From Bdellovibrionales bacterium (GTDB lineage: Bacteria; Bdellovibrionota_G; JALEGL01; JAGRMV01), in assembly GCA_020434365.1 (NCBI GenBank), contig JAGRAX010000001.1, positions 8,568 through 72,567 on the forward strand: a stretch of 64,000 nucleotides of DNA, given 5' to 3'. The position numbers and the translations under genes were made by a program. Positions 2,360 to 56,400 of this stretch are shown in pieces (position 1 is the stretch's first letter; each line of letters begins with the position of its first letter). The notes below the pieces were generated by a model. It was not told where the DNA came from and searched no databases. It saw only the letters and a program-made list of their open reading frames with translations.

Positions 2360-2399
2360 AATTGACCCTCTACTTGTACAATGCTAGCTAGGGACTCAC

Positions 2400-3635
2400 A
2401 TGAAAGCACCCAAAACAGATGTGGTCCAACTCTCAGATATTGAAAGGGCGCAAAAGCGCATATCCGATTCTCTCTATTGTACACCATGCATTGAGTTTTT
2501 TTCTCCTTTTTTTTCAAAGCCTTCGCCCAAACTCTATCTAAAATTAGAAACCATGCATCAAACGGGCTGCTTCAAAGAACGTGGCGCGTTAAACAAACTT
2601 CTCTCCATTGATGAAAAAAATCTAGGCAAGCGGGTCATCGGAGCTTCTGCTGGGAACCATGCGCAGTCGGTTTCTTATCATGGGGCGCGTTTGGGATTTG
2701 AAGTCTCCATGATTATGCCGGAAAGCACGCCCAACAATAAAATTTTTGCCACCGAAAAATGGGGCGCGCATACGAGATTGCAAGGACATACCGTAGACGA
2801 AGGAATTGTCTTGGCTAAGGAGCAAGCCAAGAAAGAGGGTTGGGAATTTGTTCACGCCTTTGATGATCCAGAAGTTATTGCGGGACAGGGTACGCTGGGT
2901 CTAGAAATTTTGATGCAGGTTCCAGATGTAGAGTTGGTCGTGGTCCCTATCGGAGGAGGAGGATTCATTTCAGGGACTGCCGTCGCGATCAAACATCTCA
3001 AACCTTCTTGCAAAATTATCGGCGTGCAGAGTGAAAAGTTTCCCAGCATGTACCACAAATTTACACATACGCCCGCTCCCCCTCGAAGCCTGGAATCTAG
3101 CATTGCCGATGGAATTGCCGTGAAAGGACTTGGCAGCTATACGCAGCCTCTGATCGAAAAATACGTCGATGACATTGTTTTGGTTTCGGATGAAGAAATA
3201 GCTCAAAGCATTTTACAGCTTTTGGAAGCCCGAAAAATCCTTGCTGAAGGTGCTGGGGCTGCGGGACTAGCCGCCATTCTTCATGGAAAAATCCCGCAGG
3301 CGGACTCGAAAGTCACGGTCACGCCCATTTGCGGCGGCAATATCGATATGAATCTTCTATCTCGGATCATTGAGCGCGGATATATGAGACAAAAAAAGCT
3401 CATTCGTCTCAACGTGGTCATCTCAGATCGACCCGGCTCTCTACACAAACTAACCGGAGTGTTGGCAGAGCTAGGTGCCAATGTTCTTCAAATTCATCAT
3501 CAAAGAGCCTCCACAGAAATCCCTTTTTACAATACAGGAACCGATATCACCTTAGAGACTCGAGGAGAAAAACACAGCCAACAAATTCTCGAACGCCTAG
3601 AAAAAGAAACCTACAAAGTCACCATTAAGAATTAG
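2400..3635 (+). CDS. ilvA: threonine dehydratase (threonine ammonia-lyase), short form with one C-terminal ACT-like domain
   Basis: 411-aa ORF. The PLP-dependent fold-type II motifs SAGNHAQ and GGGG glycine loop are present, and a C-terminal regulatory domain follows. It is divergent from the Hsp70 gene with a 40-nt spacer. Confidence 0.85.
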   Translation: MKAPKTDVVQLSDIERAQKRISDSLYCTPCIEFFSPFFSKPSPKLYLKLETMHQTGCFKERGALNKLLSIDEKNLGKRVIGASAGNHAQSVSYHGARLGFEVSMIMPESTPNNKIFATEKWGAHTRLQGHTVDEGIVLAKEQAKKEGWEFVHAFDDPEVIAGQGTLGLEILMQVPDVELVVVPIGGGGFISGTAVAIKHLKPSCKIIGVQSEKFPSMYHKFTHTPAPPRSLESSIADGIAVKGLGSYTQPLIEKYVDDIVLVSDEEIAQSILQLLEARKILAEGAGAAGLAAILHGKIPQADSKVTVTPICGGNIDMNLLSRIIERGYMRQKKLIRLNVVISDRPGSLHKLTGVLAELGANVLQIHHQRASTEIPFYNTGTDITLETRGEKHSQQILERLEKETYKVTIKN

Positions 3636-3806
3636 AGACTGTTCTGTTCTTTTCTTTATCCCAATGGAAAGCCATTGAAAAAATATCTTTGCCCTTGACA
3701 TTACTCACTTCCCTATCCTAGGGTCATTTCAGATACAATATACGAGACCTAAAAGGAGGTATTTCAAATGAAATAATATATAGGGCGATATGCCATAGGA
3801 GCTTTT

Positions 3807-4277
3807 TTGGCGCTAATGGCCACAACTCAGGCTTATGGAGCGGATGCAAGCATCTCATACAAGATGATCAATGGGACAGAGAACACGTCGTGCAGCTATG
3901 AAGCGCAATGGATCACCGAAGACTCCGTAGATAAAAGTAATATTATCTCTAGAAATGATTTTACCGAAAAAGACTTAGGCAACTATGGGAATATTTACGC
4001 CCAAGTTATCAGAACCTACTACACTCAAAAAGGTAACTTCAAAAATCAAAGTCCAGAAAAACAAATACCGGGACAACAGTCATTTTGTGATTCATTCTCG
4101 GTTTGTGCTCTAACTTTTGTTTGTAAAAATACTGCTGAGAGCACACAAGTAGAAGTCACGATTCAAGATCACAAAGGAAAAACTTCAACCTACAACATCG
4201 ATGTTCATAAAAAAGGGGAAAAAGGGAAACCTTTCGAAGGATCTCATATAGATGGTGTAAGTGTATACGTAAAATAA
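3807..4277 (+). CDS. hypothetical small secreted protein
   Basis: 156-aa ORF with a TTG start, 7 nt after an AGGAG. It has a hydrophobic N-terminus and ends at a strong intrinsic terminator. I recognise no domain. Confidence 0.4.
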   Translation: MALMATTQAYGADASISYKMINGTENTSCSYEAQWITEDSVDKSNIISRNDFTEKDLGNYGNIYAQVIRTYYTQKGNFKNQSPEKQIPGQQSFCDSFSVCALTFVCKNTAESTQVEVTIQDHKGKTSTYNIDVHKKGEKGKPFEGSHIDGVSVYVK

Positions 4278-4298
4278 CTCTAAAAAAATACATACTTT

Positions 4299-4336
4299 AC
4301 CTCCTGGGTTTTCCAAACTCAGGAGGTTTTTTTTGT
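4299..4336 (+). terminator. rho-independent terminator
   Basis: Stem ACCTCCTG / CAGGAGGT with a 13-nt loop, followed by a run of 9 T, directly downstream of the 3807..4277 ORF. Confidence 0.8.
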
Positions 4337-4535
4337 TCGCTACATTTTTTTCATAAAGTCACAAAAGCTTATGTTTTTGAAGAATTCTGATCAATAGAGA
4401 AGAATTTTGATCTCGTAAGAATCTTGGAAATCCCCAAACATCTTTGTAGCTGATTTGAATCCAAGAAAAGGGCAGCATGTTTCTCTTTGAAAAATCTGGA
4501 TCGAACTTTATCTCTTTTGTGTCTGTGTTATATCT

Positions 4536-5096
4536 GTGACCATGTTTGCTTGGATTGTACTGGTGCAGTGGCTTGCACGTTTGATTTTTGCCCTTTTGAT
4601 TGCTCTTTCGATCTGGTCTGTTCGGATCATGTTGGAACGCAAAAAATATTTTGCTTCACTGAAGCTAGATCCTTCGAAAGACTTTGTGGAGCAAGCTGAC
4701 CAGAATGCGTTTTTCGCGCAGGCGCGTGCGTCTCTCTCCACAGCTTCAACTCCAGAATCTGTAGAACGAAAATATCAAAACCATCTTCATTTGATTTCAA
4801 AGGATCTTCAAAAAGATCTTGCAAGTTTGGGTACACTGGGAAGCATCAGTCCTTTTATAGGTCTATTGGGAACGGTGTGTGGAATCATTGCAGCTTTTGG
4901 AGATCTTTCGCAGGGAACGCAAAATACAAATCAGATGATGTTTTCTTTGGCCGAAGCGCTGCTTCTTACAGCTGTAGGTTTGGGCGTAGCCATTCCTGCT
5001 GTGGTTGCCTACAATTATTTTTCTCGTCAGGTCAAAGAAGTGCTGTCTCACCTTACTTGTCTTAAAAACGAACACCTAGAATCTATGGAAAGCTAA
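4536..5096 (+). CDS. exbB: MotA/TolQ/ExbB proton-channel protein
   Basis: 186 aa with three TM segments and the MotA/TolQ/ExbB C-terminal signature (..GLLGTVCGIIAAF..MMFSLAEALLLTAVGL..). It is followed by exbD, a tonB-like gene and a TonB-dependent receptor. Start is GTG at 4536 or ATG at 4542. Confidence 0.85.
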   Translation: MTMFAWIVLVQWLARLIFALLIALSIWSVRIMLERKKYFASLKLDPSKDFVEQADQNAFFAQARASLSTASTPESVERKYQNHLHLISKDLQKDLASLGTLGSISPFIGLLGTVCGIIAAFGDLSQGTQNTNQMMFSLAEALLLTAVGLGVAIPAVVAYNYFSRQVKEVLSHLTCLKNEHLESMES

Positions 5097-5500
5097 TGGC
5101 TTTTTCTCCTGAATCAGAAGACGGCATTTTTGACATCAACATCACGCCTTTTGTGGATGTCGTATTGGTTTTGCTCGTCATTTTTATGGTGACTGCGCCC
5201 ATGCTGGCCAAACAAGCTCTTACACTTACACTTCCCGACTCTAGCGTCTCTGACCCCATACAAGCTACAAGTCTGGGCATTTCGATTTCGGCCTCCGGTC
5301 AGTTCTCCATGTACGGTGAGCTCACTTCCGAAAAAGCCTTTGTGGAAAAAGCCGCGCAGGCCATGCAAAAAGACCCAAACACTCAAGCGATGATCGCAGC
5401 GGATGTCAACTGCGCCCATAAACATGTGATCAAAGTGATCAATCTCTTGCGCCAAGCGGGAGTTGAGCGCTACGCCTTTCAAGTCAGAGTAGAGGAGTGA
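5096..5500 (+). CDS. exbD: ExbD/TolR biopolymer transport protein
   Basis: 134 aa with one TM (ITPFVDVVLVLLVIFMVTAPM), typical of ExbD/TolR. Its start overlaps the exbB stop. Confidence 0.85.
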   Translation: MAFSPESEDGIFDINITPFVDVVLVLLVIFMVTAPMLAKQALTLTLPDSSVSDPIQATSLGISISASGQFSMYGELTSEKAFVEKAAQAMQKDPNTQAMIAADVNCAHKHVIKVINLLRQAGVERYAFQVRVEE

Positions 5501-5503
5501 TGC

Positions 5504-6169
5504 TTGCTCAGAGTTTCCAATCAAAAGCATTGGCTTGTTTCTATTTTTATTCACCTGTCATTGCTGATCATTTGCATCTTGTTGGCTTGGGTGTTTTCAA
5601 AAAATCCAGAAAAAATAGAACGTTTTGAGTTTACGATCAAAGAAGTTCCTGATTTTGAAACGGCTCCTATTGCGAAAAACATAGAAAAAAAAATGCAGCC
5701 CATCCAAAGCAGTACAAAAGAGATTGATACGAATCAAAATCAAAATGTTCCAGAAGTCTTCGGCATTCGAAAAGACTCTCTGAAAACAAGTGGCTCTTCA
5801 GGAATCCATGAAAAAGCAGGCAATACCCTAGGCAAAGATCCTGATTCGCTCATACTTGAGGATGATCGAGAACTCCCCACTCCCAAGCCGGCCTACTTGG
5901 TTTCCCAAATGCCCGTGCTCCTGGCTCAGATTGACCCTGTCTATCCAGAAGAAGCCCGAAAGAAAAATATCGAAGGGCAAGTCGTATTGAAAGTTCTCAT
6001 TGATGAAGAAGGAAAAGTTGCAAGGTCCATCATTGTAGAAGATCCTGGCTATGGTTTTGGAAAAGCTGCAAAGGAAGCCATGATGGACTATACCTTTAAA
6101 GCTGCGCGTATCGAAAATCAAAATGTAGCCGTAGAGATTCGCTATGTTGTGCGCTTTGAACTGAAGTAA
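5504..6169 (+). CDS. tonB: TonB-family energy transducer (C-terminal TonB domain)
   Basis: 221 aa with an N-terminal TM. The C-terminus (..YPEEARKKNIEGQVVLKVLIDEEGKVARSIIVEDPGYGFGKAAKEAMMDYTFKAA..) is a TonB C-terminal domain. Confidence 0.75.
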   Translation: MLRVSNQKHWLVSIFIHLSLLIICILLAWVFSKNPEKIERFEFTIKEVPDFETAPIAKNIEKKMQPIQSSTKEIDTNQNQNVPEVFGIRKDSLKTSGSSGIHEKAGNTLGKDPDSLILEDDRELPTPKPAYLVSQMPVLLAQIDPVYPEEARKKNIEGQVVLKVLIDEEGKVARSIIVEDPGYGFGKAAKEAMMDYTFKAARIENQNVAVEIRYVVRFELK

Positions 6170-6174
6170 ATGTT

Positions 6175-8433
6175 ATGAAATATTACAGCCTTCTCATATT
6201 TTTAATTGCCAGCTTACACAACCTGAGCTCTGTGACTTTTGCACAAGAAAAAATATGCTCTGTTGCATTTACGATCAAAGAAAAGGGCAGCAAAAAGAAA
6301 ATTTCCAATGCGAGCATGTTTCTCCTTCCCGAGGGCCTGGAAAAAATCTCCGATGATCAAGGACAACTGAGCTATGATCACCTAAGCTGCACAACACATG
6401 CTTGGGTCATCAATCTCACGGGCTACCTTCGAAGAGATCTTGAAATCAATGTGGAAGACTCCATGTCAAAAACCATTTTTTTGGAGGCCGCCAGCAGTAA
6501 TGAATTTGAAACCATTGTTACAGCAGATAAAAATACCCGAGATGGATCCAAAAGAAGTATTGCGCAGAAAGATTTTATCTCTGCCATTGGGAGTCGCGGG
6601 GATCCCATCATAGCCTTAGAAAATGAAGTGGGCTTTTCGGGTTTTGGCTCGCAAGGAGGTGTCGTTTTGCAAGGCGCGGATCCTGAAGATACGCGTTTTT
6701 ACATTCATGGACATGAGATTCCTCTGATTTTTCACAACCTAGGCTTTTCTTCGATTCTGATTCCCGACGTGGTGGATTCTGTGCAGCTTTACACTGCAGG
6801 GTTTGGTGCAGAGTACGGACGAAGCATCGGAGGGAACGTCAATTTGGAAACTGTCGATCCTCGAAGTGATCGCATTCATGGAATGAGCTATGTAGATTTG
6901 CTCAATGCCGCGGCATTGGTGGAGGGACCCATTGCAGATCATCACTCTTTTTGGATGGGCGGTCGAATCAGTTACATTGGTCCAATTTTTTCATTGGTAA
7001 CCATGAATGATGACAGTGTGTCTTTCAATCAGGTCCCACAATTTTTTGATCTTGAAGCTCAATACAAATGGGACATTTCAAAGAATCTACAGTTTGACCT
7101 TTTGGGCATTGGATCCAAAGACACTGTAAATGTCTTGCTTCGAAATACGGATGATCCTTATTTCAAAGGAGAACTTGGATCCACCACAGCCTTTTATCGT
7201 TTCATCCCTCGGATTCAATATACATGGAATGAGCAAAATCGATTTGAACTATCTATGGGTCTTGGAAAAGATTATGTAAAATTCTCTCTCGGAGATCAGT
7301 TTTTTGATGCCGAAATTTTTCAACCTACCTTAAGATCAGAATGGGAGCAGCATTGGAACGATCAGTGGATCTCGTATGTGGGTTTGGACTTTCAGTATCT
7401 TGACTTTCAAGCGGATGTAAATTTGCCTGCAGGATCTTTTCCCAATGCAGAGGATGAAAATGTGCCTTTGAGTTTGAGAGATGTCATTGTCAAAGAAATT
7501 GAGCAACAAGCACTGCAAGCTGGAGCATATCTGCGAGTTGATTTTTTGACTCAAGATCAGATTTGGAGATTTTCTCCCAATCTTCGTTTCGATTATTTTG
7601 GTCTCACACACAACCTACACATTCAACCAAGGCTCGAGATCGAATCTCGCATTGATAAGCATTGGCGCGCGAGGCTCTCAGGGGGATTGTACCATCAAGC
7701 TCCTCAACCTGCAGAACTGGAAAGCAGTTTTGGAAATCCAGATCTCGAAGATCCCTATGCCCTTCACTATGTTGTCAGTGCTTTGATGGATTTTAGAGAT
7801 AAAAAAGCAGAAGGTTTGTACGGAGATTTCAGCATTTTTTATAAGGACCTTTACAATCTTGTCGTAGACAGTGATGCGCTGATCACAAGAAATGGCAGCC
7901 TCGTCCCCCAAAGATATAGCAATGATGGCAGCGGCTACAGCATCGGAAATCAATGGTCACTCCGATACAATAAAGGCAGATGGTCTCATGCTTTGGCCTA
8001 TACGCTTCTTTGGTCAGAAAAATTCTCTCCCGATGAAGCGCTGTATCCATCATTAGGAGAGCAAAGACACAATGCAAATCTTCGATCGACGGTGAAGCTA
8101 GGAAACTGGTCATTGGGAGCGCGACTACGTGTCATTTCGGGTCAGCGCTATACGCCGGTGCTATCTGCAGCCTATGATGCGGACCAAGATATTTTCTTGC
8201 CTTCTTTTGGGGCGCGTAATTCTCGTCGCGGACCTTTGTTTTATCAATTGGATCTACGCCTGGATCGAAAATGGATCTATGATCAATGGATTCTTTCCTT
8301 TTATCTCGATATTCAAAATGTAACCAATCGAAATAATCCTTTCGAAGTTGAGTATAATTTTGACTACTCGGAGCAAGAGTACTCATCGGGCATTCCGATT
8401 TTGCCAACTTTTGGAATCAAAGGAGAGTTTTAA
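6175..8433 (+). CDS. TonB-dependent outer-membrane receptor with an N-terminal carboxypeptidase-regulatory-like extension
   Basis: 752 aa with a signal peptide, a plug-like region (..DPIIALENEVGFSGFGSQGGVVLQGADPEDTRFYIHG..), a long beta-barrel, and a C-terminal aromatic residue (..FGIKGEF). Confidence 0.8.
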   Translation: MKYYSLLIFLIASLHNLSSVTFAQEKICSVAFTIKEKGSKKKISNASMFLLPEGLEKISDDQGQLSYDHLSCTTHAWVINLTGYLRRDLEINVEDSMSKTIFLEAASSNEFETIVTADKNTRDGSKRSIAQKDFISAIGSRGDPIIALENEVGFSGFGSQGGVVLQGADPEDTRFYIHGHEIPLIFHNLGFSSILIPDVVDSVQLYTAGFGAEYGRSIGGNVNLETVDPRSDRIHGMSYVDLLNAAALVEGPIADHHSFWMGGRISYIGPIFSLVTMNDDSVSFNQVPQFFDLEAQYKWDISKNLQFDLLGIGSKDTVNVLLRNTDDPYFKGELGSTTAFYRFIPRIQYTWNEQNRFELSMGLGKDYVKFSLGDQFFDAEIFQPTLRSEWEQHWNDQWISYVGLDFQYLDFQADVNLPAGSFPNAEDENVPLSLRDVIVKEIEQQALQAGAYLRVDFLTQDQIWRFSPNLRFDYFGLTHNLHIQPRLEIESRIDKHWRARLSGGLYHQAPQPAELESSFGNPDLEDPYALHYVVSALMDFRDKKAEGLYGDFSIFYKDLYNLVVDSDALITRNGSLVPQRYSNDGSGYSIGNQWSLRYNKGRWSHALAYTLLWSEKFSPDEALYPSLGEQRHNANLRSTVKLGNWSLGARLRVISGQRYTPVLSAAYDADQDIFLPSFGARNSRRGPLFYQLDLRLDRKWIYDQWILSFYLDIQNVTNRNNPFEVEYNFDYSEQEYSSGIPILPTFGIKGEF

Positions 8434-9254
8434 TGAAGTCCTTAATTTTTTATTTTTTACTTTTTTGTCTTTCATCTTGCAGTGACCAGACCATTGAATA
8501 TTTTGAATTGGGAGAATTTAGATTTTTAACAGCCATTGCCAACCTACCGGAAGTCGATGGATCTGTGAGCAACATTGTAAGCATTACGCCTTACATTTCT
8601 GACATTGATGCTGGAGGCAGAACCATTGCTCTCGAAATTTATGCTTGTCCAGATCCTGGAATTTCAAATGGCCAAGAAGCTGCCTGTCAGCCTAGCCTAA
8701 GCACCACACAAAATATTTCCTATTCTTCCATTCACACTTCAAGTTTAGGAAGCAGTTTTACAGGCGCGCTGCCTTCGTTTTCAGTTTCCGTTCCGGCAGG
8801 TCTTTTGACAGGTCTTGCAGATGATGTTCGATTCAATGGGATAGATTTTATTGTCACAATGAATTTTTCTTTTGATCAGGAACATTTTTATACCTACAAA
8901 AGAATCAAAGTTTCGGAAAGGCTTTCAAAAAATACCAATCCTTCTATCAATGAAATTTTATTTTCTCAGAGCGCAAGCAAAGCCTTAGAAGACAAAGATG
9001 AGCTTTCGATTACCACAAGCGGAAATGCCGAAGAAAGTTATGAAATTGCCAAACCCAATACAAACGACAAAGAAACTCTGGAGGAAGAAGCTTTCGTGAC
9101 TTGGTTTACCTACCAAGGAACATCTGCCTTTTCTCGAACTTTTGTAGATGAAGGCACAAGCTTCGAACTTGGAAAAGAGGGAGATATCTCCAAAGCTTTT
9201 GTTGCCGCCATTCTCAGAGATGGCCGAGGCGGCGCAAGTTTTGCGATTCGTTAG
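8433..9254 (+). CDS. lipoprotein co-transcribed with the TonB-dependent receptor
   Basis: 273 aa with lipobox LSSC after an N-terminal hydrophobic segment. Its ATG overlaps the receptor stop (TAATG). No domain recognised. Confidence 0.5.
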   Translation: MKSLIFYFLLFCLSSCSDQTIEYFELGEFRFLTAIANLPEVDGSVSNIVSITPYISDIDAGGRTIALEIYACPDPGISNGQEAACQPSLSTTQNISYSSIHTSSLGSSFTGALPSFSVSVPAGLLTGLADDVRFNGIDFIVTMNFSFDQEHFYTYKRIKVSERLSKNTNPSINEILFSQSASKALEDKDELSITTSGNAEESYEIAKPNTNDKETLEEEAFVTWFTYQGTSAFSRTFVDEGTSFELGKEGDISKAFVAAILRDGRGGASFAIR

Positions 9255-9262
9255 GCACTGAT

Positions 9263-10102
9263 CTATAAAAAATTTTTGCTTTTGAGAGGCTTTTTTCTAG
9301 TTTCAGCAATGGTATCCAGCATCACTCGATGAAGTTTTTTGTTACTGGCTACAATTTGCCTGTTCCAAAAGTCTTTGATTTTTTTTCCCTCATAGTCTGT
9401 GACTTTTCCTCCCGCTTCTTCCACAAGTAGAATCCCCGCAGCCACATCCCAGGGATGAAGTCCCGGTTCCCAAAAGCCATCAAAGCGTCCACATGCAACT
9501 TGTGCCAAGTCTGTTGCTGCAGATCCCGGCCTACGCACGCATCTGGAACGAAGTTCAAAACGAACAAAAGCGGCCATGTTGTTTTCGTCGCTCTCTTTTC
9601 GATCATAGGGAAAACCCGTAGCCAGTAAGGCTTGAGAGAGTTTTTTTGTGGAAGAGACGGAAATTTTTTCTCCATTGCAGTATGCGCCTTTCCCAGACAC
9701 AGCTGTGTACGTTTCTTTCCACAAAGGATGTGCGATGACACCAAAGAGAATTTTTCCCTTGGATACAAAGGCAATGGAGACCGCAAATACCGGAAAGCCA
9801 TGCGCAAAGTTTGTGGTTCCATCAATGGGATCGATGATCCATACCTCACCTTTGCGTGGATCTACGCTGTGATCACTTTCTTCGGCCAAAATCTGATGCA
9901 AAGGAAAATGCTGCCTAATGATTTTTTTGATGGCCGCCTCGCTGGCCAAATCTGCGGTCGTAACCAAGTCGCTCTCGCCTTTCATTGATGTGACGAAATC
10001 CCTTTGTTTGTAATGTTTTCGAATGATGGCGCAGGCTTTTTGAGCCGCAAGTTTTCCTACGGTTTCTATATTTTCAAGATCAATCTTTGAAGTATGTTTC
10101 AT
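9263..10102 (-). CDS. suhB: inositol monophosphatase family protein (SuhB-like)
   Basis: 279 aa with the IMPase motifs ..WIIDPIDGTTNFAHG.. and ..WDVAAG... Confidence 0.85.
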   Translation of the reverse strand: MKHTSKIDLENIETVGKLAAQKACAIIRKHYKQRDFVTSMKGESDLVTTADLASEAAIKKIIRQHFPLHQILAEESDHSVDPRKGEVWIIDPIDGTTNFAHGFPVFAVSIAFVSKGKILFGVIAHPLWKETYTAVSGKGAYCNGEKISVSSTKKLSQALLATGFPYDRKESDENNMAAFVRFELRSRCVRRPGSAATDLAQVACGRFDGFWEPGLHPWDVAAGILLVEEAGGKVTDYEGKKIKDFWNRQIVASNKKLHRVMLDTIAETRKKPLKSKNFL

Positions 10103-10247
10103 GGTCTATTGTGCTTTCTATGCTTATGAGGCCATTTCTGAGTCATTTTTCAGCAAGAGGAACCTGTTTTTTCTCTTAGTGTAAACTTTTGATTCCATTT
10201 TTTTTGCCGCTTTTTTTTAACTAGTGAATATCATTAAAGCAATGCGC

Positions 10248-10262
10248 TGGCACTGCTTTTGC
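10248..10262 (+). promoter_or_regulatory. sigma-54 (RpoN) -24/-12 promoter
   Basis: TGGCACtgcttTTGCT has an exact GG-N10-GC spacing, a perfect -24 TGGCAC and a TTGCT -12 element. It lies ~320 nt upstream of a sigma-54 activator gene. Confidence 0.55.
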
Positions 10263-10437
10263 TAAGTATATGGGCATGAAACAAAGATCAAAAGAAAATC
10301 GAAGGATGGGAAGAATGATCCCTGATCTTATGGATCGCTAACAAAGGCCTGCAGCACTTGGGTCTTTTCTCTCAAGACTCAAGTTGAGGCCAAGGCCCTC
10401 ACAAGAGGGATTATGGTTACCACAACAACGCAAGTAA

Positions 10438-10472
10438 AAGCCTGAATCGCTACCCTGATTCGGGCTTTTTTC
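10438..10472 (+). terminator. intrinsic terminator or attenuator hairpin
   Basis: 11-bp stem AAGCCTGAATC / GATTCGGGCTT (one G-U wobble) with an 8-nt loop, followed by TTTTTTC. It sits ~175 nt downstream of the sigma-54 promoter and ~100 nt upstream of the activator start. Confidence 0.5.
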
Positions 10473-10501
10473 TTTGACTGCCGAAATAATGCACAAATCG
10501 C

Positions 10502-10531
10502 TTGGTTTTTGCGCACAACATCGCGTAAAAT
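10502..10531 (+). promoter_or_regulatory. candidate sigma-70 promoter for the activator gene
   Basis: -35 TTGGTT, an 18-nt spacer and -10 TAAAAT, ending ~48 nt upstream of the ATG at 10579. Confidence 0.35.
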
Positions 10532-10578
10532 AGTAGTCATCCCACCCATTTTTGAGCAGAAAGTAGGCAAACTACAGC

Positions 10579-12417
10579 ATGGAATATGAAAAAACCCAAC
10601 CGCAGTTCATGGACAAAATTGATGACGAAAAATCCGTCCCTCTTGAAAAATCCTATTTGGTCGCTATGACCGGTCCCCAAGCCGGTACTGTATTCACACT
10701 ATCTGATGGGTCCATGATTGTGGGAAGACAACCGACTGCAGATATTTTTCTTAATGATCATCAGGTCTCTCGAAATCATGCCGAATTTGTCACCAGCATG
10801 GGAGAAACGCAGGTCCATGATCTGGGCTCAACCAATGGAACCTTTCTCAATGGAGAAAAACTAGAAAAAAAAGTGGCGATCTCTGATGGAGATGAAGTTC
10901 AGCTGGGCGCAACTTGTTTTCGATTTTCGATTCACAACCCCATCGATGGAAATCGACTGGGCCTGAGCAATCACGGATATTTTGAAACGCGTTTGCACGA
11001 AGAACTCGATCGAGCCTCTAGGTACAAACGAGATCTGTCTGTGCTCATGATCAGTCCTGCCATCGATCCCAAAGAAATTTTAGACAAAGCCAAACTCCTC
11101 TCGGACCACTACCCTGACGTCGTTGAAAAAATTCGAGGCATCATTCGCACCATGGATTTGCTCGCGCACTATGGAAAATATGAATTGGAACTTCTTCTGC
11201 CAGAAACATCGAAAAAAGATGCGTTAATTCTAGCAGAAAGAATCTTGGCCGATGCTACTTTTGGAAAAGATGAAAACCTTTCCATTGGAATGGCTTCTTT
11301 TCCGGAAGATGGGCGCACTCCTGACATCCTTTTAGAGCGATCTCGATTGGCTTTGAAAAAAGCTCGAACGGAGAAAAAAACCAAACCCGTTGTAGACTTG
11401 GCAGAAGAAAGACATCGTCTCATTCTTTCCAATGAAAAAGAAGTCATCGTTCGAAGCGAAAAAATGAAGGAGCTTTTTGATGTTATCGAGCGCATCGCCA
11501 AATCTACCATCACCGTTTTAATTCAAGGGGAGACAGGCGTTGGAAAAGAGGTTGTCGCTGAAACCATTCACACCAAAAGTGATCGCTCTAAAGATCCATT
11601 GGTTTGTGTCAACTGCGCGGCGCTTACGGAAACGCTTCTAGAAAGCGAACTTTTTGGACATGAAAAAGGATCTTTCACTGGCGCAGATCAAACCAAAATT
11701 GGTCTTTTCGAAAGTGCCAATGGTGGAACCATTTTTTTGGATGAGATTGGAGAAATGCCGCTAAAAACTCAGGCCAAACTTCTTCGCGTACTTCAAGCCA
11801 AGAAAATCATGCGCGTGGGATCAAACAAAGAAATTAACACCGATGTGCGTATCATTGCTGCCACTAATAGAAAGCTCGAAAAGCAAGTAGAGGAGAAGAA
11901 TTTTCGCGAAGACTTATTCTATCGACTCAATGCCGCTACGCTCACCATACCTCCACTACGAGAAAGGAAAAAAGAGGTTCCCTATCTCGTACAAACTTTT
12001 ATCAAAGAATGCTGTGAAGAAAACGGCATCGACAACAAGGACATTTCACCCGATGCCCTAGATATTTTGATGAAATACTCCTGGCCTGGAAACATTCGAG
12101 AACTACGAAATACCGTAGAGCGCGCCGTTGTCATTTCTGAAGGTGAGACCATTTATAAAGAAGCCTTGACCAGCAGACTCACCTCTGATGTAGATCAGAT
12201 CACTTCTTCTTCTTCGATCGACAATCTAGATGCGGCCGTAGACTCTACCATGGTCGGAGACATGAAAGAGGTCATCGCCGCATACGAAAGAGATCTGATC
12301 ATCAACGCCCTGAAGAAAACGCAGTGGAATCAAACGAAGGCCTCAGAAATTTTAAATGTTCCCAGAAGAACACTGGTCTCAAAAATCAAAAAGTACAAAA
12401 TCAAAGAGGATGAATAG
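10579..12417 (+). CDS. sigma-54-dependent transcriptional activator with an N-terminal FHA domain and a degenerate GGDEF-like domain
   Basis: 612-aa ORF. FHA motifs are ..GRQPTADIFLNDHQVSRNHAEF..GSTNGTFLNGEKL... The GGDEF-like fold reads ..RYKRDLSVLMISPAID..IRTMDLLAHYGKYELELLLPETS... The AAA+ sigma-54 interaction motifs are VLIQGETGVGKE, ESELFGHEKGSFTGA and GGTIFLDEIGEM, and a C-terminal Fis-type HTH is NVPRRTLVSKIKKY. Confidence 0.85.
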   Translation: MEYEKTQPQFMDKIDDEKSVPLEKSYLVAMTGPQAGTVFTLSDGSMIVGRQPTADIFLNDHQVSRNHAEFVTSMGETQVHDLGSTNGTFLNGEKLEKKVAISDGDEVQLGATCFRFSIHNPIDGNRLGLSNHGYFETRLHEELDRASRYKRDLSVLMISPAIDPKEILDKAKLLSDHYPDVVEKIRGIIRTMDLLAHYGKYELELLLPETSKKDALILAERILADATFGKDENLSIGMASFPEDGRTPDILLERSRLALKKARTEKKTKPVVDLAEERHRLILSNEKEVIVRSEKMKELFDVIERIAKSTITVLIQGETGVGKEVVAETIHTKSDRSKDPLVCVNCAALTETLLESELFGHEKGSFTGADQTKIGLFESANGGTIFLDEIGEMPLKTQAKLLRVLQAKKIMRVGSNKEINTDVRIIAATNRKLEKQVEEKNFREDLFYRLNAATLTIPPLRERKKEVPYLVQTFIKECCEENGIDNKDISPDALDILMKYSWPGNIRELRNTVERAVVISEGETIYKEALTSRLTSDVDQITSSSSIDNLDAAVDSTMVGDMKEVIAAYERDLIINALKKTQWNQTKASEILNVPRRTLVSKIKKYKIKEDE

Positions 12418-48544: not shown

Positions 48545-49480
48545 CTAGTTTCGAAGTTTATCAAAAAAACCTTGCAGCTCCGATCGCGAAAAATAGCTGA
48601 TCGTGATCTCACCCTTTTCATGGGTTTTGGGTTTGATTTGTACTTTGGTTCCCAATTGTCTTTGTAAATTTTCTTGAAAGTTTCGAAGAAACACATCCAA
48701 ATCCGAAGTGCTTTGAGTTTTTTTACTCTTGCGGTTGGGGTTTGCAATTTCGTTTTTTACAAGATTTTCAATCTGCCTCACAGAGAGATCTTCTGCGATG
48801 CTTCTTTGGGCTAAGCGTGTTTGTTTGTTGGGATCTGAACTTGCAAGCAGCGCACGTGCATGCCCCATGCTCAATTGTTTTTCGCTTACAAGTTTTTGAA
48901 CAGAGTTGGGAAGTTTGAGCAAGCGAAGCATATTGGTCACCGTGCTTCGATTTTTTCCTGCTTTTTGTGCGAGTTCTTCATGACTCAAAGAAAACTCTTT
49001 TTGAAGGCGCTGATAGGCAAGAGCTTCTTCGATGGGATCCAAATCTTCCCGTTGTAAATTTTCAATGAGCGCGATTTCCAATTGTTCTTGGTCTGTGCTG
49101 GAACGAACAATGACGGGAACATTTGTAAGTCCGAGTTTTTTGCAAGCTCGAAGTCTTCGCTCACCCGCAATGAGTTCATAGTGAATGCCCACACGTCTGG
49201 CAACCAAAGGCTGAATGACTCCATGCTCTTTGATGGAGGCAACCAGATCTTCCAGGGCTTCATCCCGAAAATATTTTCGAGGTTGGCGTGGATTGACTTG
49301 GATGTCCTGAATTAAAACATCTCGAACAAGCGCGCTGGTTTCAAAATTTTTTTCTTCCGTAACACTATTTTTGCTCACTGTAGATGCGTTTGTAGAAACT
49401 GCACTTTGAGCCTTTTCATCAAAGGATTTTTTTTGAGGAATCAGTGAAGAGAGTCCTCTTCCGAGTCTTTTTTCTTTCAT
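48545..49480 (-). CDS. parB: chromosome partitioning protein ParB
   Basis: 311 aa with ParB box motifs (..GERRLRACKKLGL..) and an HTH. It is downstream of parA. Confidence 0.9.
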   Translation of the reverse strand: MKEKRLGRGLSSLIPQKKSFDEKAQSAVSTNASTVSKNSVTEEKNFETSALVRDVLIQDIQVNPRQPRKYFRDEALEDLVASIKEHGVIQPLVARRVGIHYELIAGERRLRACKKLGLTNVPVIVRSSTDQEQLEIALIENLQREDLDPIEEALAYQRLQKEFSLSHEELAQKAGKNRSTVTNMLRLLKLPNSVQKLVSEKQLSMGHARALLASSDPNKQTRLAQRSIAEDLSVRQIENLVKNEIANPNRKSKKTQSTSDLDVFLRNFQENLQRQLGTKVQIKPKTHEKGEITISYFSRSELQGFFDKLRN

Positions 49481-49483
49481 TGC

Positions 49484-50317
49484 TTACAGCCTTTCTATGT
49501 TTGCAGGTTCTGAGTTTGTTTGCAGTTCTTGCAGGGGCGCTTGTTGTTTTTGTTTTTGTCGGTCAAAAAACTCTTTGGCGAGAGCCAGATAGTTTTGCGC
49601 ACCACTACTGCGAATGTCATACATCAAAATAGGTTTTCCAAAACTCGGTGCTTCACTTACGCGTACATTTCTTGGAATTTTTGTTCGATACAAAATCCGT
49701 CCGAAATGATTTTTGACTTCGAGTTCTACCTGATGACAGAGAGAATTTCGTTTGTCGAACATGGTCAGAAGTATGCCTTCCAATCGAAGTTTGGCATTGA
49801 GGTTTTCTCGGACGAGATCAATGGTTTGAACCAACCGACTCAAACCCTCTAAGGCGTAATACTCCGCTTGCAGGGGAACAATCACTTGGTCTGCGCAGCT
49901 CAAGGCGTTGACTGTGAGTAGGCCCAATGATGGTGGGCAGTCAATAAGAATGTAGTCGTACTGCTCGCTCACCTGCTGCAAAAGTTTTTTGAGTTGGTAT
50001 TCCCTCTCGGGCAAATCTACAGCTTCGATTTCAAAACCAATCAAATCTGGTGTCGTAGGCATGACATCCAAAAAAGGTGTGTCCGTTTTTTTAATGATCT
50101 GCTCTGCACTGCTCTGTCCAATCAATCCGTCATATAGCAGATGCTCTTGACCTGCGGTCACACCTACGCCGCTGCTTGTATTGGCTTGTGGATCTAAATC
50201 AACCAAAAGAACTTTTTTTTCTTGAACCGCAATAGAGGCTCCCAGGTTGATGGTGGAGGTGGTTTTACCCACACCACCTTTTTGATTGGACATGGCGATG
50301 ATTGTAGCTTTGCTCAT
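49484..50317 (-). CDS. parA: chromosome partitioning ATPase ParA (Soj)
   Basis: 277 aa with a deviant Walker A KGGVGKTT. Its start overlaps the mnmG stop. Confidence 0.9.
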
Positions 50318-52197
50318 GAATTCTCCTTGATGGATTGGCTTTGGAATTTCTTTACGTACATAGAAACAATACTCACAGCTGCGGGCGTAACACCGGAAAT
50401 TCTAGAGGCCTGTCCCAGTGTGTGAGGTCTGATGCGTGAGAGTTTTTCTCGAACTTCTGTGGAAAGACTTGGAAGCTGAGCATAGTCAAAAGTTTTTGGA
50501 ATCACCGTGTGCTGCTCTTTTTCACTTCTGGAAATGTCTTGCTGCTCGCGCGAGATATATCCCTCATATTTGCAAGCAATGTGAAGGTTTTCAATGTAGT
50601 CATGCTGCTCTTTTTCCAACTGTGGTGCCAAAACTTGTAAATGTTTCCACTCCACTTCCGGCCTTTTGAGAAAGTCCCACAAACTGTTGGGACTCTTGAG
50701 CGGTGTCAAACCCATCTGCGTGATTTTTTCGTTGGTTGCGGGTGTGGGTGTAAGTCGAAGGCTTTGAAGTTTTTGTTTGCTGTGCTCGATGAGGTGGTTT
50801 TTTTCCTTAAACTTTTGATAACTCCACTCCTCAACCGTTCCAAGAGCATAGCCTTTTTCTAGCAGTCTTTGATCTGCATTGTCTTCCCTTAAGTGCAGGC
50901 GATGCTCTGCCCGTGAGGTAAACATGCGATATGGCTCCGTCGTCCCTTTGGTTACAAGATCATCGACCAAAACGCCGATGTAGCTTTCTGACCTAGACAG
51001 CACAAAGGGTTCAAAGTTTTTGTCTAGAGACTTTGCAGCATTCACACCTGCAAGCCAGCCTTGAGCTGCGGCTTCTTCATAACCTGTGGTTCCATTGATC
51101 TGCCCTGCATGAAAAAGTCCCGGAATTTTTTTCACCTCAAGCCACGGCGAAAGTTCGGTAGGATCAATATAGTCATATTCAACGGCATAGCCCGGGCGCA
51201 TCACTTCAACCTTTTCCAGGCCTTTCATACTACGGAGAAACTCCACCTGTGTTGCCAAAGGCAAGGAATTGGACAGGCCGTTGGGATAGATTTCTGCTGT
51301 TTCTAGGCCCTCAGGTTCTAAAAACACTTGATGTGCGTCTTTGTCAGCAAATCGAACAATCTTGTCCTCAATGCAGGGGCAGTAGCGGGGACCGACACTT
51401 TGGATTTTTCCGCTATACATGGCAGATTGTGAAAGTTTGGATTGGATGATTTGATGAGTCCGAGCATTGGTATAGGTCACATGGCAGGGAAGCTGCTTTT
51501 GACGAGTAGGTGTTCGGAAAAAAGAAAACTGTGGCGTGGGCTCGTCCCCAGGTTGCTCTTCTAAGATATTGAAATTAATAGTTTTTTTATCAAGTCTGGG
51601 CACGGTTCCTGTTTTCATCCGCCCTCTGCGAAGCCCCACACCCAAAAGAGTTTCACTCAAAGACTTCGAGGCCTTGTCGCCAGAGCGACCTCCGGACAGA
51701 CTCAAAGCTCCGATATGCATCAGACCATTGAGAAAGGTTCCGGTTGTCAAAATGACGGCCCCCGCTCTGAGCTCTTCACCAAAGTGAGTGACAACACCCA
51801 CACATCGACCTTGATCCAAGATAAGGTCCTCTACCATAGCCTCTCGGCATACAATAGAAGAGTGAGATTCAATGATACTTTTGGTTTTTCGTGCGTAGAG
51901 ATCTTTGTCAGCCTGCGCCCGCGTTGCCCAAACCGCTGGGCCTTTGCGTGTATTCAGGGTTCGAAATTGTATACCTGTTTCATCAATAGCCCAGGCCATC
52001 ACTCCACCCAAGGCCTCGACTTCTTTTACCAAGTGTGACTTTCCCAAACCCCCAATTGCCGGATTGCAGGACATATGCCCAATTCGATCTAAATTACTGG
52101 AAACCAAAGCTACTTTTGCTCCCATTTGAGCCGCGGCCCAGGACGCTTCGATCCCGGCATGACCTCCTCCAACAACAATGACATCAAAAGTGTTCAT
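50314..52197 (-). CDS. mnmG: tRNA uridine-5-carboxymethylaminomethyl modification enzyme MnmG (GidA)
   Basis: 627 aa with an FAD-binding N-terminus [14 protein letters not shown] and conserved MnmG blocks throughout. Confidence 0.95.
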
Positions 52198-52198
52198 G

Positions 52199-52921
52199 TT
52201 ACCGTCTCACCAAGCTTTCAGTTTCATAATAACGATTGGCCACAGAGACATTGGGATACACAAGACAAGCTGGGGCCATCAGCACACCGGGGTTTAAAAC
52301 GCTGTTACATCCTGTTTGACAGCCGTCACCTATAATGGCGCCCATTTTTCTCAAGCCTGACTCTATGTCATCCCCTTGAATTCGAAGCTTGACTTCTCCA
52401 TCCGTAATTTTCAAGTTCGAAACTTTCGTACCCGCTCCCAAATTGACCTCATTGCCAAGAATGCTGTCCCCAACATAGGCAAAGTGCGCGGCCTTAGCGC
52501 CGTTACAAAAAATAGAACTTTTCACCTCTGTCGCATGACCAATCACACAGTGTTCTCCTGCAATCAAACCTCCCCGGATATAGGCTGATTGGCGAATCTG
52601 ACTGTGAGGACCTATAATACTGGGTCCCTGAATGTAGGCTCCAGGCTCAACGGTCACACCTTCTCCAAGCTCAACCTCTCCCTCAAAGTAAGCTCCAGCT
52701 TTAATATAGACCTTTCCTCCCCCTCTGGACCTTAATTCTGTATCTTCTAAAATCAGTCCCTGTGGAGTGTTCGGTGAAATTTGACTTTCAATCCACTCTT
52801 CTTTTACTCCCTTTGACAAAATATCCCAGGCAAATTCTAGATCTTGAAAAAGATCACGAAACCACAAAAGCTTTGTGTCGACATAGTGATCAATATTATA
52901 TGTTTCACGTGAAACATTCAT
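52199..52921 (-). CDS. hexapeptide-repeat (left-handed beta-helix) protein, probable acyl/nucleotidyl-transferase-like
   Basis: 240 aa with repeated [LIV]G..x..x hexads through the central region. It lies 1 nt upstream of mnmG, and its first codons contain an 18-bp palindrome. Confidence 0.5.
52900..52917. promoter_or_regulatory. perfect 18-bp palindrome ATGTTTCACGTGAAACAT (copy 1)
   Basis: 9+9 perfect inverted repeat overlapping the start codon region of the 52199..52921 gene. An identical core occurs at 53064..53083. Confidence 0.5.
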
Positions 52922-53063
52922 GGCTGGAAACTATACCTTCTTTTCTTCCTCAAGTGGAGCAGAAAAACTCTTCAATGAATGAATTTTTCGTTTTCGAAAT
53001 AATTTTATAGTAATCCTATAAAATCGATCACATTCTATAAATAAAAGTGGTTAAAAAATCTGT

Positions 53064-53083
53064 CATGTTTCACGTGAAACATG
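53064..53083. promoter_or_regulatory. perfect 20-bp palindrome CATGTTTCACGTGAAACATG (copy 2)
   Basis: Starts 15 nt downstream of the dnaN stop. It shares the core of copy 1 with one extra base pair on each side. Confidence 0.5.
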
Positions 53084-53097
53084 GAACTACTTTATCT

Positions 53098-54222
53098 TCA
53101 GACACGCATAGGCATAATGACACCAAAATAGCTTGGGTCATCAGGAATTCGAACTACCCCAGGGCTTTGCTCGTGGTTAAACTCAAAAACAACTTTGTCT
53201 CCTTGACTTGCGCTCAAGGCATCCAAAACATATTTGGCGTTAAAACCAATATTGAGTTCTCCCCCATCAAACTCGCCAAAAATTTCTTCCTCTGCTTCTC
53301 CCAACTCTGGTGAGTTGGCTCGAAGTAATACTCCCTGTCCATGGATTCCAAATTTTACACATTTGGATTTTCCTTCTGAAAGAAGCGAAACTCTACGTAA
53401 ACTCTGATAAAAAGATTCTTTTTCCAAGGTAAGTTTTTTGTTGTTGTTTTTAGGGATGACAGCTGTGTAATCTGGAAACTCTCCTACAACCAGTCTCATA
53501 AAAAGTTTAGTGTCTTTAACTTTACATACGGCATTACCTTGACTCACAGCAAAATCTATCTCATTTTCTTTGGCATCCGAAAGAAGTTTTTTCAATTCAA
53601 AAACACCTTTTCTGGGTAATATAACACTCTTATCAAGGTTAAAATTCTCATTTTCATCTAAGTCTTTGTTATAAAAAGCTAAACGGTGTCCATCTGTCGC
53701 AACCATTCTAAATATTTTTTTTCCATTACCTAACGTTTCTGTTTCTATAAGCGAGCCGTTGAGATTATATCTCATCTCATCAGTACAAATGGCAAAAGAG
53801 GTTCGATCAATGGCATACTTGAGTGTGTTGGTTTGCAGACGAGAAAATTCTATATCTGAAGACGAGGGCATCTTTGGAAATTCACTGCCATCTACGCCTG
53901 CGATTTTAAATTGGGCCTTGCCACTGTGAATTGTAATCCAAGATTGATCGCTGGATACAAGTTCGCCCTGCTCTGCAGGAAGTTCCTTAATAATGCTTAT
54001 AAAATAACTCGAAGGAACGCAGATCCGTCCCGGCTCTTCAACTTTAGCTTCGATCTGAGTTTGAATTCCTATTTCTAAGTCTGTGGCTTGAATCAAAAGA
54101 CATTGGTCTTTGGCTTGAATTAAAATATTTCCCAAAATGGGCATTGTAGTTTTTTTCTCAGCTACGCTGGAGACACGACTCAATGCTTTAAGAAAAGGAA
54201 CTTTATCAAACTGAACTTTCAT
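53098..54222 (-). CDS. dnaN: DNA polymerase III beta sliding clamp
   Basis: MKVQFDKVPFLKALSRVSS...TMPILGNILIQ.. aligns with the E. coli DnaN N-terminus, and the C-terminus is ..VIMPMRV. The track ORF starts 3 codons upstream at 54231. Confidence 0.9.
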   Translation of the reverse strand: MKVQFDKVPFLKALSRVSSVAEKKTTMPILGNILIQAKDQCLLIQATDLEIGIQTQIEAKVEEPGRICVPSSYFISIIKELPAEQGELVSSDQSWITIHSGKAQFKIAGVDGSEFPKMPSSSDIEFSRLQTNTLKYAIDRTSFAICTDEMRYNLNGSLIETETLGNGKKIFRMVATDGHRLAFYNKDLDENENFNLDKSVILPRKGVFELKKLLSDAKENEIDFAVSQGNAVCKVKDTKLFMRLVVGEFPDYTAVIPKNNNKKLTLEKESFYQSLRRVSLLSEGKSKCVKFGIHGQGVLLRANSPELGEAEEEIFGEFDGGELNIGFNAKYVLDALSASQGDKVVFEFNHEQSPGVVRIPDDPSYFGVIMPMRV

Positions 54223-54231
54223 TACACACAC

Positions 54232-54479
54232 TCCCTTAAGATAGTATATTCTTTAATATAAAATTCGTCGTAATAGAAGATCTTGTGGATAATTTTTTTC
54301 TTCTATACAAGTTATGAATTTTATTTATGAAATCGTTAAAAAACCCCTGTGGAAAAAAACCATTTTGTAAAAGTTTATTCCAAGACATGTATTTTCCAAA
54401 GTTGCAAACCTGTGGAAGATAGAGCAATTTTCCACAGAAGTTCACATGCTTTGTGGATAAGATAGTAAAAAAAAGTTTA
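54232..54479. other. candidate oriC: DnaA-box cluster in the dnaA-dnaN intergenic region
   Basis: Perfect TTATCCACA boxes (as the complement TGTGGATAA) lie at 54283..54291 and 54451..54459. Near-perfect boxes lie at 54347..54355, 54411..54419 and 54427..54435. AT-rich stretches are at 54249..54280 and 54460..54479. Confidence 0.6.
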
Positions 54480-55826
54480 TTAGACATGCTCATGAAGGGC
54501 CTGCTGAAGGATTTGCATCGTCTGATGAAGCTGTGGATCCTGACTTAAGGTTTTAGAAATTTTAGAAACGCCGTGCAAAATGGTGGAGTGATCCTTTCCT
54601 CCAAAAGCTTGACCCAATTCAGGAAAAGATTGTTTGGTTAATTGTCGACAAAGATACATCGCAATTTGTCTGGGTTGTGCGACAACTTTATGTCTTTTGT
54701 TTGATTTAAGATCAGAAACTTTGAGATGAAAAAATTTTGCAACGGTCTGAAGAATCATTTCCACTGTGATTTCTTTTTCTTTGGGGGTCATCGAATGAAG
54801 AATTTGTTTGGCAACAGTCAAAGAAATAGGCTGCCCCGAAAGAGAAGTATACGCGCCCAAACGAATCAAACAACCTTCCAAAACACGAACATTGGTTTTC
54901 ACCTGGCTCGCAATGTAATAAGACACCTCGTCTGGAAGGTCTATATGATCGGCCAAAGATTTTTTTCTAATGATCGCAACCCTTGTCTCTACGTCCGGAG
55001 CTTGAATGTCACAGAAAAGACCAGATTGAAATCTAGATCTAAGCCGTTCATCCAAATCGGGAATTTCATGAGGCATACGATCAGAAGTTAAAACAATCTG
55101 TTTATTGTTTTGAAAAAGTTTATTGAAAGTATGAAAAAACTCTTCTTGAGTTCTTTCTTTCTTTGCAAAAAACTGAATGTCGTCAAGTAGAAGCAAATCA
55201 CATTGCCTTCGATACTGATCTCTAAACCTTTCAGTCTGGCCGTTTCGAATGGATTGAATCAACTCATTGACAAACTCTTCAGAACTTCGGTACAAAACTT
55301 TCGCCCTAGGGTTTTTGTCAAGCCACACATGTCCAATGGCATGAAGCAAATGAGTTTTTCCCAAACCCACTCCCCCATAAATCAGCAAAGGGTTGTAGCT
55401 TTTTCCAAGTTTACTGGCTACGGCTTGCGCCGCAGCATGCGCAAATTGATTGTTTGGCCCCACAACAAACTCATCGAAACGATATTTTTGATTCAAACGT
55501 AAAGAAGGTCCAAACTCCTTTTTTTCTTTCAAAGAGACTATGGAGGGTTTCTCTTCCAAATCAGGTGTATGCATTTGTTTTTCAACTTGCGCAGAGATCG
55601 AGAGCCTTACTTCGCCACCCAGGCGTCCAGAGTGATGTACCAACATTTTCTCAATGGTGGAAAGGTAATCCTTTTGAACCCTAATTTTATAAAACACATT
55701 GGGAACTTCTAGGATCCAACCCTTTCCCGAGTTTTTGCAATCCAAAGGCTTGATCCAAGTATTGAATGCGTGAGTTGAAAGCTGCTCCTTGAGTTCCGCT
55801 TGAGTTTTTTGCCAACAGTCGTTCAT
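54480..55826 (-). CDS. dnaA: chromosomal replication initiator DnaA
   Basis: 448 aa with AAA+ Walker A GGVGLGKTHLL and Walker B LLLLDDIQF. The C-terminal DNA-binding domain reads ..IAMYLCRQLT..SFPELGQAFGGKDHSTILHGVSKI... Confidence 0.95.
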   Translation of the reverse strand: MNDCWQKTQAELKEQLSTHAFNTWIKPLDCKNSGKGWILEVPNVFYKIRVQKDYLSTIEKMLVHHSGRLGGEVRLSISAQVEKQMHTPDLEEKPSIVSLKEKKEFGPSLRLNQKYRFDEFVVGPNNQFAHAAAQAVASKLGKSYNPLLIYGGVGLGKTHLLHAIGHVWLDKNPRAKVLYRSSEEFVNELIQSIRNGQTERFRDQYRRQCDLLLLDDIQFFAKKERTQEEFFHTFNKLFQNNKQIVLTSDRMPHEIPDLDERLRSRFQSGLFCDIQAPDVETRVAIIRKKSLADHIDLPDEVSYYIASQVKTNVRVLEGCLIRLGAYTSLSGQPISLTVAKQILHSMTPKEKEITVEMILQTVAKFFHLKVSDLKSNKRHKVVAQPRQIAMYLCRQLTKQSFPELGQAFGGKDHSTILHGVSKISKTLSQDPQLHQTMQILQQALHEHV

Positions 55827-55939: not shown

Positions 55940-56400
55940 CCCTTTTTTCAAAACGCTTATCCACAACTATATCTTTCAAATTAAAAAATTGTAAGGCTTT
56001 GAAAATGCAACCAATAGTCAGACAATTTCGATTCTCCCAATCAAAGAAAAAAAAGATTCCTATCCACAGTTTCACCTTCGGTCACCGCAGACCGAAAAAA
56101 ATACGCGCCCAAATTCTTCTTCACTATCAAAGACTAAGAAATTCATTGTACATGTTGTTCTATAAGTCATCGACCATAAGCTTTTAAAATCAAGACAAAA
56201 AACCAAAGGAAAAAAATCACATACTCATTTTACCAGGTGTTTCTAGGTCCAAACCTAAAACGAAGACATTCCCTGTGGACAAATAAAAAAGACAAAAGCT
56301 CATAAAAAAAAATCCAAAACAAGAAACGTAAATATCTAAGAAAAAAAACCATGTGATACTAAGCGATTACATGAAATTTAAAGAAGAATTTGCAGAATAT
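55940..56400. other. second DnaA-box/AT-rich region upstream of dnaA (possible bipartite origin or dnaA autoregulatory region)
   Basis: A perfect TTATCCACA lies at 55947..55955 and a one-mismatch box (TTGTCCACA) at 56275..56283. Positions 56150..56400 are strongly A-rich, inside an ~870-nt non-coding gap between dnaA and rpmH. Confidence 0.45.

Follow-up and report, generated by a model that had tools for sequence, protein, structure and literature searches.

Two copies of a perfect palindrome that lie between dnaN and the mnmG-parAB genes of an uncultured member of the Bdellovibrionota are very probably chromosomal parS sites, the centromere-like loading sites of a ParABS origin-segregation system; on the evidence of the locus sequence, we put the probability of this reading at roughly 0.93. 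The ParB protein encoded 3.4 kb away is most likely the protein that would bind both. A dimeric DNA-binding protein of the helix-turn-helix type almost certainly uses the two palindromes as a pair of binding sites, and since the sites are canonical parS in sequence, their main role would be to nucleate a partition complex at the origin and not to serve as operators of a regulon. Every property of parS that a sequence can reveal was found within the window (the whole 64-kb stretch of DNA analysed here) or in a relative: the consensus itself, a cognate ParA and ParB, the arginine and glycine residues that specify parS, proximity to the origin and conservation in a related genome.

The 18-bp palindrome ATGTTTCACGTGAAACAT was located at 52900-52917 and again at 53065-53082, both by reading the sequence and with a repeat finder, and the two copies share the unstranded 16-bp core TGTTTCACGTGAAACA (52901-52916 in site 1 and 53066-53081 in site 2). 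Site 1 falls inside codons 1-7 (MNVSRET) of a hexapeptide-repeat gene, covering codons 1-6 and the first base of codon 7 of an ORF that opens ATG AAT GTT TCA CGT GAA ACA TAT (MNVSRETY). Site 2 is intergenic and widens to a perfect 20-bp palindrome, CATGTTTCACGTGAAACATG, at 53064-53083, which begins 15 nt beyond the dnaN stop codon (53098-53100, minus strand). The copies are 165 bp apart from start to start, with 146-147 bp between them, and according to the repeat finder their flanks show no repetition past 18 bp. As a search pattern the site is written TGTTNCACGTGRAACA, and as a 20-22-bp duplex GGATGTTTCACGTGAAACATCC.

These measurements bear out much of what the sequence-only reading had proposed, namely an 18-bp perfect inverted repeat over the first hexapeptide codons, a 20-bp version just past the dnaN stop codon, a separation of about 145 bp and a location between dnaA-dnaN and the mnmG-parAB block, the last of which agrees with the gene map. 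It had also held that the pair was not due to chance, and the counts uphold this: base composition predicts 2.2e-5 occurrences of the exact 16-mer core per window, and two are present, which is far beyond chance. When the 64 kb were searched with up to three mismatches to the 16-bp core, two matches were returned, both exact and both near the origin; a degenerate search of the window with up to five mismatches gave nothing credible besides these two, the matches with four or five mismatches being scattered and AT-rich. Perfect 16-bp palindromes of any sequence number three in the window (about 1.1 expected by chance), two of which are the pair described here. The remaining one is CAATGCCGCGGCATTG at 6903-6918.

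At both sites the core agrees with the chromosomal parS consensus, TGTTNCACGTGAAACA, with 0 mismatches. The optimal parS of Bacillus subtilis is exactly TGTTTCACGTGAAACA (PMC4333373), and a review gives the B. subtilis site as TGTTNCACGTGAAACA (PMC7022226). Hyphomonas neptunium likewise has TGTTTCACGTGAAACA as its parS, with a total of two copies that both fall in the ori domain (PMC7022226), and the same sequence serves as the Caulobacter parS oligonucleotide, 'parSCc' (PMC10547168). Nothing contradicts the parS reading, on which TTTCACGTGAAA, if sought throughout the genome, should turn up as a few parS sites near the origin and not at promoters.

The genes around the sites lie on the minus strand and were assigned from the ORF listing and Pfam domains. 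In the direction of transcription they are dnaA (54480-55826), dnaN (53098-54231), the hexapeptide-repeat gene (hex, 52199-52921; LbH, GlmU-C-terminal-like), mnmG (50314-52197), parA (soj, 49484-50317), which encodes a partition ATPase with AAA_31 and CbiA/ParA domains, and parB (48545-49480), whose product, a CTP-dependent DNA clamp with ParB_N, HTH_ParB and ParB_C domains, is the presumed ligand of both sites. Beyond dnaA, rnpA-, yidD- and yidC-like ORFs appear in the ORF listing on the plus strand. The gaps within hex-mnmG-parA-parB (48545-52921) are 1, -4 and 3 nt, parA overlapping the end of mnmG by 4 nt and stopping 3 nt ahead of parB, and this tight packing makes the four genes look like one operon. 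The product of its leading gene is a stand-alone left-handed beta-helix protein of 240 aa, similar to the C-terminal (acetyltransferase) half of GlmU-type enzymes, and rsmG (gidB) is absent between mnmG and parA, where the common order is mnmG-rsmG-parA-parB.

The two sites bracket the dnaN-hex spacer (52922-53097, 176 bp, minus strand), and because this is the sole non-coding stretch upstream of the packed genes, it presumably holds their promoter. A promoter scan of the 176-bp spacer, run with rules that do not cover this phylum, gave no sigma-70-type match, and a permissive Rfam search of 52500-53500 gave no RNA family. Between the sites the repeat finder also reported a perfect, AT-rich inverted repeat with 9-bp arms, ATTTTATAG-N5-CTATAAAAT, at 53002-53024. 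It may serve as an element of a promoter or operator, bind a factor that modulates access to parS, or have arisen by chance in AT-rich DNA. Translation of the sites themselves leaves traces in the ORF listing: two spurious plus-strand ORFs (52762-53010 and 53047-53313) contain the peptide FHVKH, which is translated parS, and VSRET is parS translated in frame on the other strand, so that in-frame parS sites yield recurrent pseudo-motifs. The peptide pattern MNV[SP]RET[YF], again translated parS, matched 600 metagenome stretches, 0 of them related to the hexapeptide protein.

The ParB encoded in this operon is a 311-aa protein that is full length by its three Pfam domains (ParB_N, HTH_ParB and ParB_C) and passes the NCBIfam model TIGR00180 with 192 bits against a cutoff of 58. 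Its best match in the PDB is B. subtilis Spo0J (6sdk, E = 5e-54), and the matches to Spo0J and to the Thermus, Caulobacter and Helicobacter ParB structures span E = 1e-42 to 5e-54 (about 1e-54). The translation contains a GERRLRA box, which we take from general knowledge of the family to be the CTP-binding motif, and an N-terminal LGRGLSSL peptide, presumably the motif that stimulates ParA.

Residues R173 and G201 of Caulobacter ParB are reported to be absolutely conserved in ParB orthologues and to specify parS, the corresponding residues of Noc being Q and R (PMC7383237). In the ParB studied here, GKNR...SMGHAR pairs with GKSR...SMGHGR of Spo0J, and the equivalents of R173 and G201 are Arg and Gly. 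The specificity positions 173, 179, 184 and 201 in Caulobacter numbering read R, M, K and G, which places the protein in the RXXG class; the numbering was carried over by counting offsets in the Spo0J and Noc alignments, with no direct alignment to Caulobacter ParB. By the same offset count, four of the six reportedly conserved DNA-contact residues of ParB and Noc are kept (G170, K171, N178 and R204). The other two, counted from the Spo0J alignment, are apparently substituted (Q162 to H and S172 to N), which counts against the parS reading.

Searching for DnaA boxes as TTATCCACA with at most one mismatch revealed two unstranded clusters, one of four boxes, two of them perfect TTATCCACA, in the dnaA-dnaN spacer (54284-54460; candidate oriC) and one of three boxes upstream of dnaA (55957-56282). 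Cumulative GC skew is lowest at about 56-58 kb, and together with the two clusters this marks a candidate oriC that is possibly bipartite. The parS sites lie 1.2-1.6 kb from the four-box cluster and 1.2-3 kb from the probable oriC as defined by both clusters and the skew minimum, as parS should. Taken together, the parS sites and DnaA boxes would pin the replication origin, and mark the centromere, in the genome of an uncultured member of the Bdellovibrionota.

Relatives were found by scanning a genome collection with DnaN, which also placed the window in the Bdellovibrionota. The closest (L001), a Bdellovibrionota MAG with 81% DnaN identity, has the gene order dnaA-dnaN-[two extra ORFs]-hex-mnmG-parA-parB, which otherwise matches that of the window, and inside the same dnaN-mnmG interval it carries two parS sites, at 11717 and 12274. 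The site at 12274, TGTTCCACGTGAAACA, occupies the matching codons of the hexapeptide gene (ATG AAT GTT CCA CGT GAA ACA), and its sole difference from the window site is non-synonymous (S to P) and falls on an N position of the parS consensus. The site at 11717, TGTTCCACGTGGAACA, carries a symmetric double substitution that leaves the palindrome perfect, and is identical to the parS of Bdellovibrio bacteriovorus, which has been shown experimentally to be bound by ParB. In L001 the distance between the two sites is 557 bp. Between dnaN and the hexapeptide gene this relative has about 1.1 kb of additional DNA (11138-12268), which holds a 180-aa ORF (11145-11687, plus strand) and a convergent minus-strand ORF ending at 11738, and the intergenic parS (11717-11732) sits between the 3' ends of these convergent ORFs.

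A metagenome scan with the body of the hexapeptide protein yielded 22 loci (124 kb), all non-syntenic, and these were used as a negative control and not as further evidence of conservation, since they are non-syntenic and lack parS: no parS-like site with up to three mismatches was found in the 124 kb. Homology to these distant hexapeptide homologues starts at about residue 6-12 (one alignment running through a stop codon was ignored), so the residues encoded by parS are not conserved among them. That the 22 homologues have neither parS nor conserved N-terminal residues argues that the constraint is on the DNA at the origin-proximal locus and not on the protein. In a more distant Bdellovibrionales MAG (L002; DnaN identity 63%), the gene order of the origin region differs (stretch 1-11589), and no parS with up to two mismatches was found within 10 kb downstream of dnaN, a result confined to that stretch; parS placement would thus appear to differ within the phylum. 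Past dnaN, this genome has ORFs of 359, 816 and 816 aa, which by size are like recF, gyrB and gyrA. Pelagibacteraceae loci (L003-L007) were left out as too distant.

The mechanism that we propose draws on established knowledge of the ParB family and extends it to this genome, for which the present findings are at the level of sequence. A ParB dimer would recognize each 16-bp palindrome, with each monomer reading one half-site by its helix-turn-helix domain, and binding of parS together with CTP would close ParB into a clamp. Such clamps would slide onto the flanking DNA, so that many ParB molecules would gather round the two sites beside oriC, and the resulting partition complex would stimulate the ATPase of ParA, which would move the duplicated origins apart. 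In other species the partition complex also loads SMC/condensin, and it probably loads SMC here as well. For this organism, ParB binding, spreading and origin segregation are thus what we infer from homologues in other bacteria.

An alternative interpretation, and the one closest to the sequence-only reading, is that the palindromes form an operator pair, besides or instead of a centromere, with ParB or another dimeric regulator bracketing the 176-bp spacer and repressing or roadblocking hex-mnmG-parA-parB, either as autoregulation or to control read-through from dnaN. The earlier proposal of paired operators for a dimeric regulator holds in so far as these are sites for a dimeric DNA-binding protein, but its regulon framing is not supported, since the sequence is that of parS and the ligand would be the ParB of the very parAB block that had been named. 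The position of the pair lends the interpretation some weight, as the only spacer upstream of the packed operon is flanked by both sites and one of them overlaps a start codon. We nevertheless consider it unlikely, and then as a secondary role only: effects of chromosomal ParB on transcription are usually weak or modest, the scan of the spacer gave no promoter, and the bracketing geometry is not conserved, given that in L001 the distance between the sites is 557 bp and two additional ORFs separate dnaN from hex. The exact parS consensus, moreover, makes a separate non-ParB regulator unnecessary. B. bacteriovorus has the same layout, with parS upstream of parAB, and there the expression of parAB and the accessibility of parS are regulated with the cell cycle (PMC10547168), which is in line with an operator role. 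In Streptococcus pneumoniae, ParB spreading from parS reportedly modulates neighbouring genes (PMC4488948); because spreading affects neighbouring genes in some species, the parS sites could conceivably influence expression of the downstream hex-mnmG-parA-parB operon as a secondary effect.

A more specific version of such a side role is that ParB loading doubles as a CTP-dependent autoregulatory switch that ties parAB expression to occupancy of the centromere, while flanking DNA, for instance the repeat at 53002-53024, might attract a factor specific to the Bdellovibrionota that hides parS when cells are not replicating. The idea follows from both sites bracketing the sole spacer presumed to hold a promoter, with one overlapping the first start codon, and a factor masking parS in non-replicating cells has been postulated for B. 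bacteriovorus (PMC10547168). We regard it as speculative, and as somewhat less probable than the general operator role. With one parS site in the opening codons of hex, which heads the genes for ParA and ParB, autoregulation would be easy to test, and the arrangement invites comparison with parS masking in B. bacteriovorus.

It is also improbable that the dnaN-proximal palindrome doubles as an intrinsic terminator at which the dnaA-dnaN transcript ends. It begins 15 nt past the dnaN stop codon, and a terminator scan flagged 53083-53064 on the minus strand as a weak terminator-like hairpin (stem of 8 bp, loop of 4 nt, tail ACAGATTTTT). The sequence-only reading had seen no T-run after either copy, which is correct for the copy in hex but not for the dnaN-proximal one, where the sense strand continues with ACAGATTTTTT, a T-run past a 5-nt spacer. 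Against termination, however, the stem is AU-rich (G-C pairs 3/8), the U-run begins only past that spacer, and the sense-strand fold is no better than those of shuffled sequences (z = -1.25; 19/200 shuffles fold equally well). In L001 the next ORF starts 8 nt after dnaN, so that no parS or hairpin directly follows the gene. What would mark an intrinsic terminator, a stable G+C-rich stem-loop with an immediate U-run, conserved after the gene, was thus not found at this site, and termination cannot explain the pair because the other copy lies within a coding start and has no U-run.

That the palindromes are instead Noc-binding sites (NBS), or sites of some other ParB-like protein, is extremely unlikely. 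The Noc model does give the highest raw NCBIfam score for this ParB (239.6 bits), and Noc structures are its second-best PDB matches, but the score is under the curated cutoff of 315, the gene is paired with parA, and Noc uses Q173 and R201 where this protein has R and G. The half-site, too, has G at position 1 and A at position 6, the positions that separate parS from NBS (PMC7383237). Noc is confined to Firmicutes and has Q173, K179, K184 and R201 (PMC7383237), and on the strength of the R/G residues, the score below the cutoff and the Bdellovibrionota host we rejected a Noc/NBS identity. Chance, or dispersed REP- or MITE-like repeat copies without specific function, is suggested only by the sequence occurring twice and is effectively refuted by the expected count (2e-5), by the lack of copies or near-copies elsewhere in the 64 kb, by flanks that are unrepeated past 18 bp and by a site kept at the orthologous position in L001.

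The parS sites described here are best seen against systems of the same kind. They are real but ordinary, of a kind already known and well described, and they bring no new biology; the particulars of this case are that the host is an uncultured Bdellovibrionota MAG, that one site overlaps the start of a hexapeptide gene and that the mnmG-parAB block lacks rsmG. Spo0J/parS of B. subtilis and the parS of Caulobacter and Hyphomonas have the identical 16-bp palindrome, TGTTTCACGTGAAACA, with no difference in kind, and in these ParABS systems the sites are likewise origin-proximal with parA and parB nearby. The ParB proteins of known ParABS systems share the three-domain architecture, the GERRxR CTP-binding motif and the R/G specificity residues. 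One site is embedded here in the start of a hexapeptide-repeat, acyltransferase-like gene, whereas in B. subtilis a site lies in parB/spo0J (PMC4333373).

Noc-NBS of Firmicutes pairs a paralogous protein of the ParB fold with a related 16-bp palindrome, but differs by Q173/R201 in place of R/G and by the pairing with ParA seen here. Plasmid ParB/KorB centromere-operators also consist of a palindrome bound by a ParB-family CTPase, which can in addition repress transcription, and so offer a precedent for an autoregulatory side role; the match of the window ParB to KorB is distant, however (E = 5e-8), and the locus here is chromosomal and origin-proximal, with the chromosomal parS consensus.

A similar layout is found in B. 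bacteriovorus, of the same phylum as the window host, where a pair of identical parS sites lies close to oriC and upstream of parAB (PMC10547168). Its purified ParB binds parS, slides off linear DNA upon addition of CTP and accumulates on closed DNA, and its parS is masked by flanking DNA in a cell-cycle-dependent manner (PMC10547168). The B. bacteriovorus site, TGTTCCACGTGGAACA, has two symmetric differences from the window site, and its neighbours are the rsmG-like bd3908 and bd3907, in contrast to the hexapeptide gene and mnmG, with no rsmG, found here. Hyphomonas, too, has just two sites, both exactly TGTTTCACGTGAAACA, to be compared with a window count that covers 64 kb. With the sites so counted in 64 kb, the organism would have a ParABS system that is both complete and canonical, its centromere a minimal one of two sites, as in B. 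bacteriovorus and Hyphomonas.
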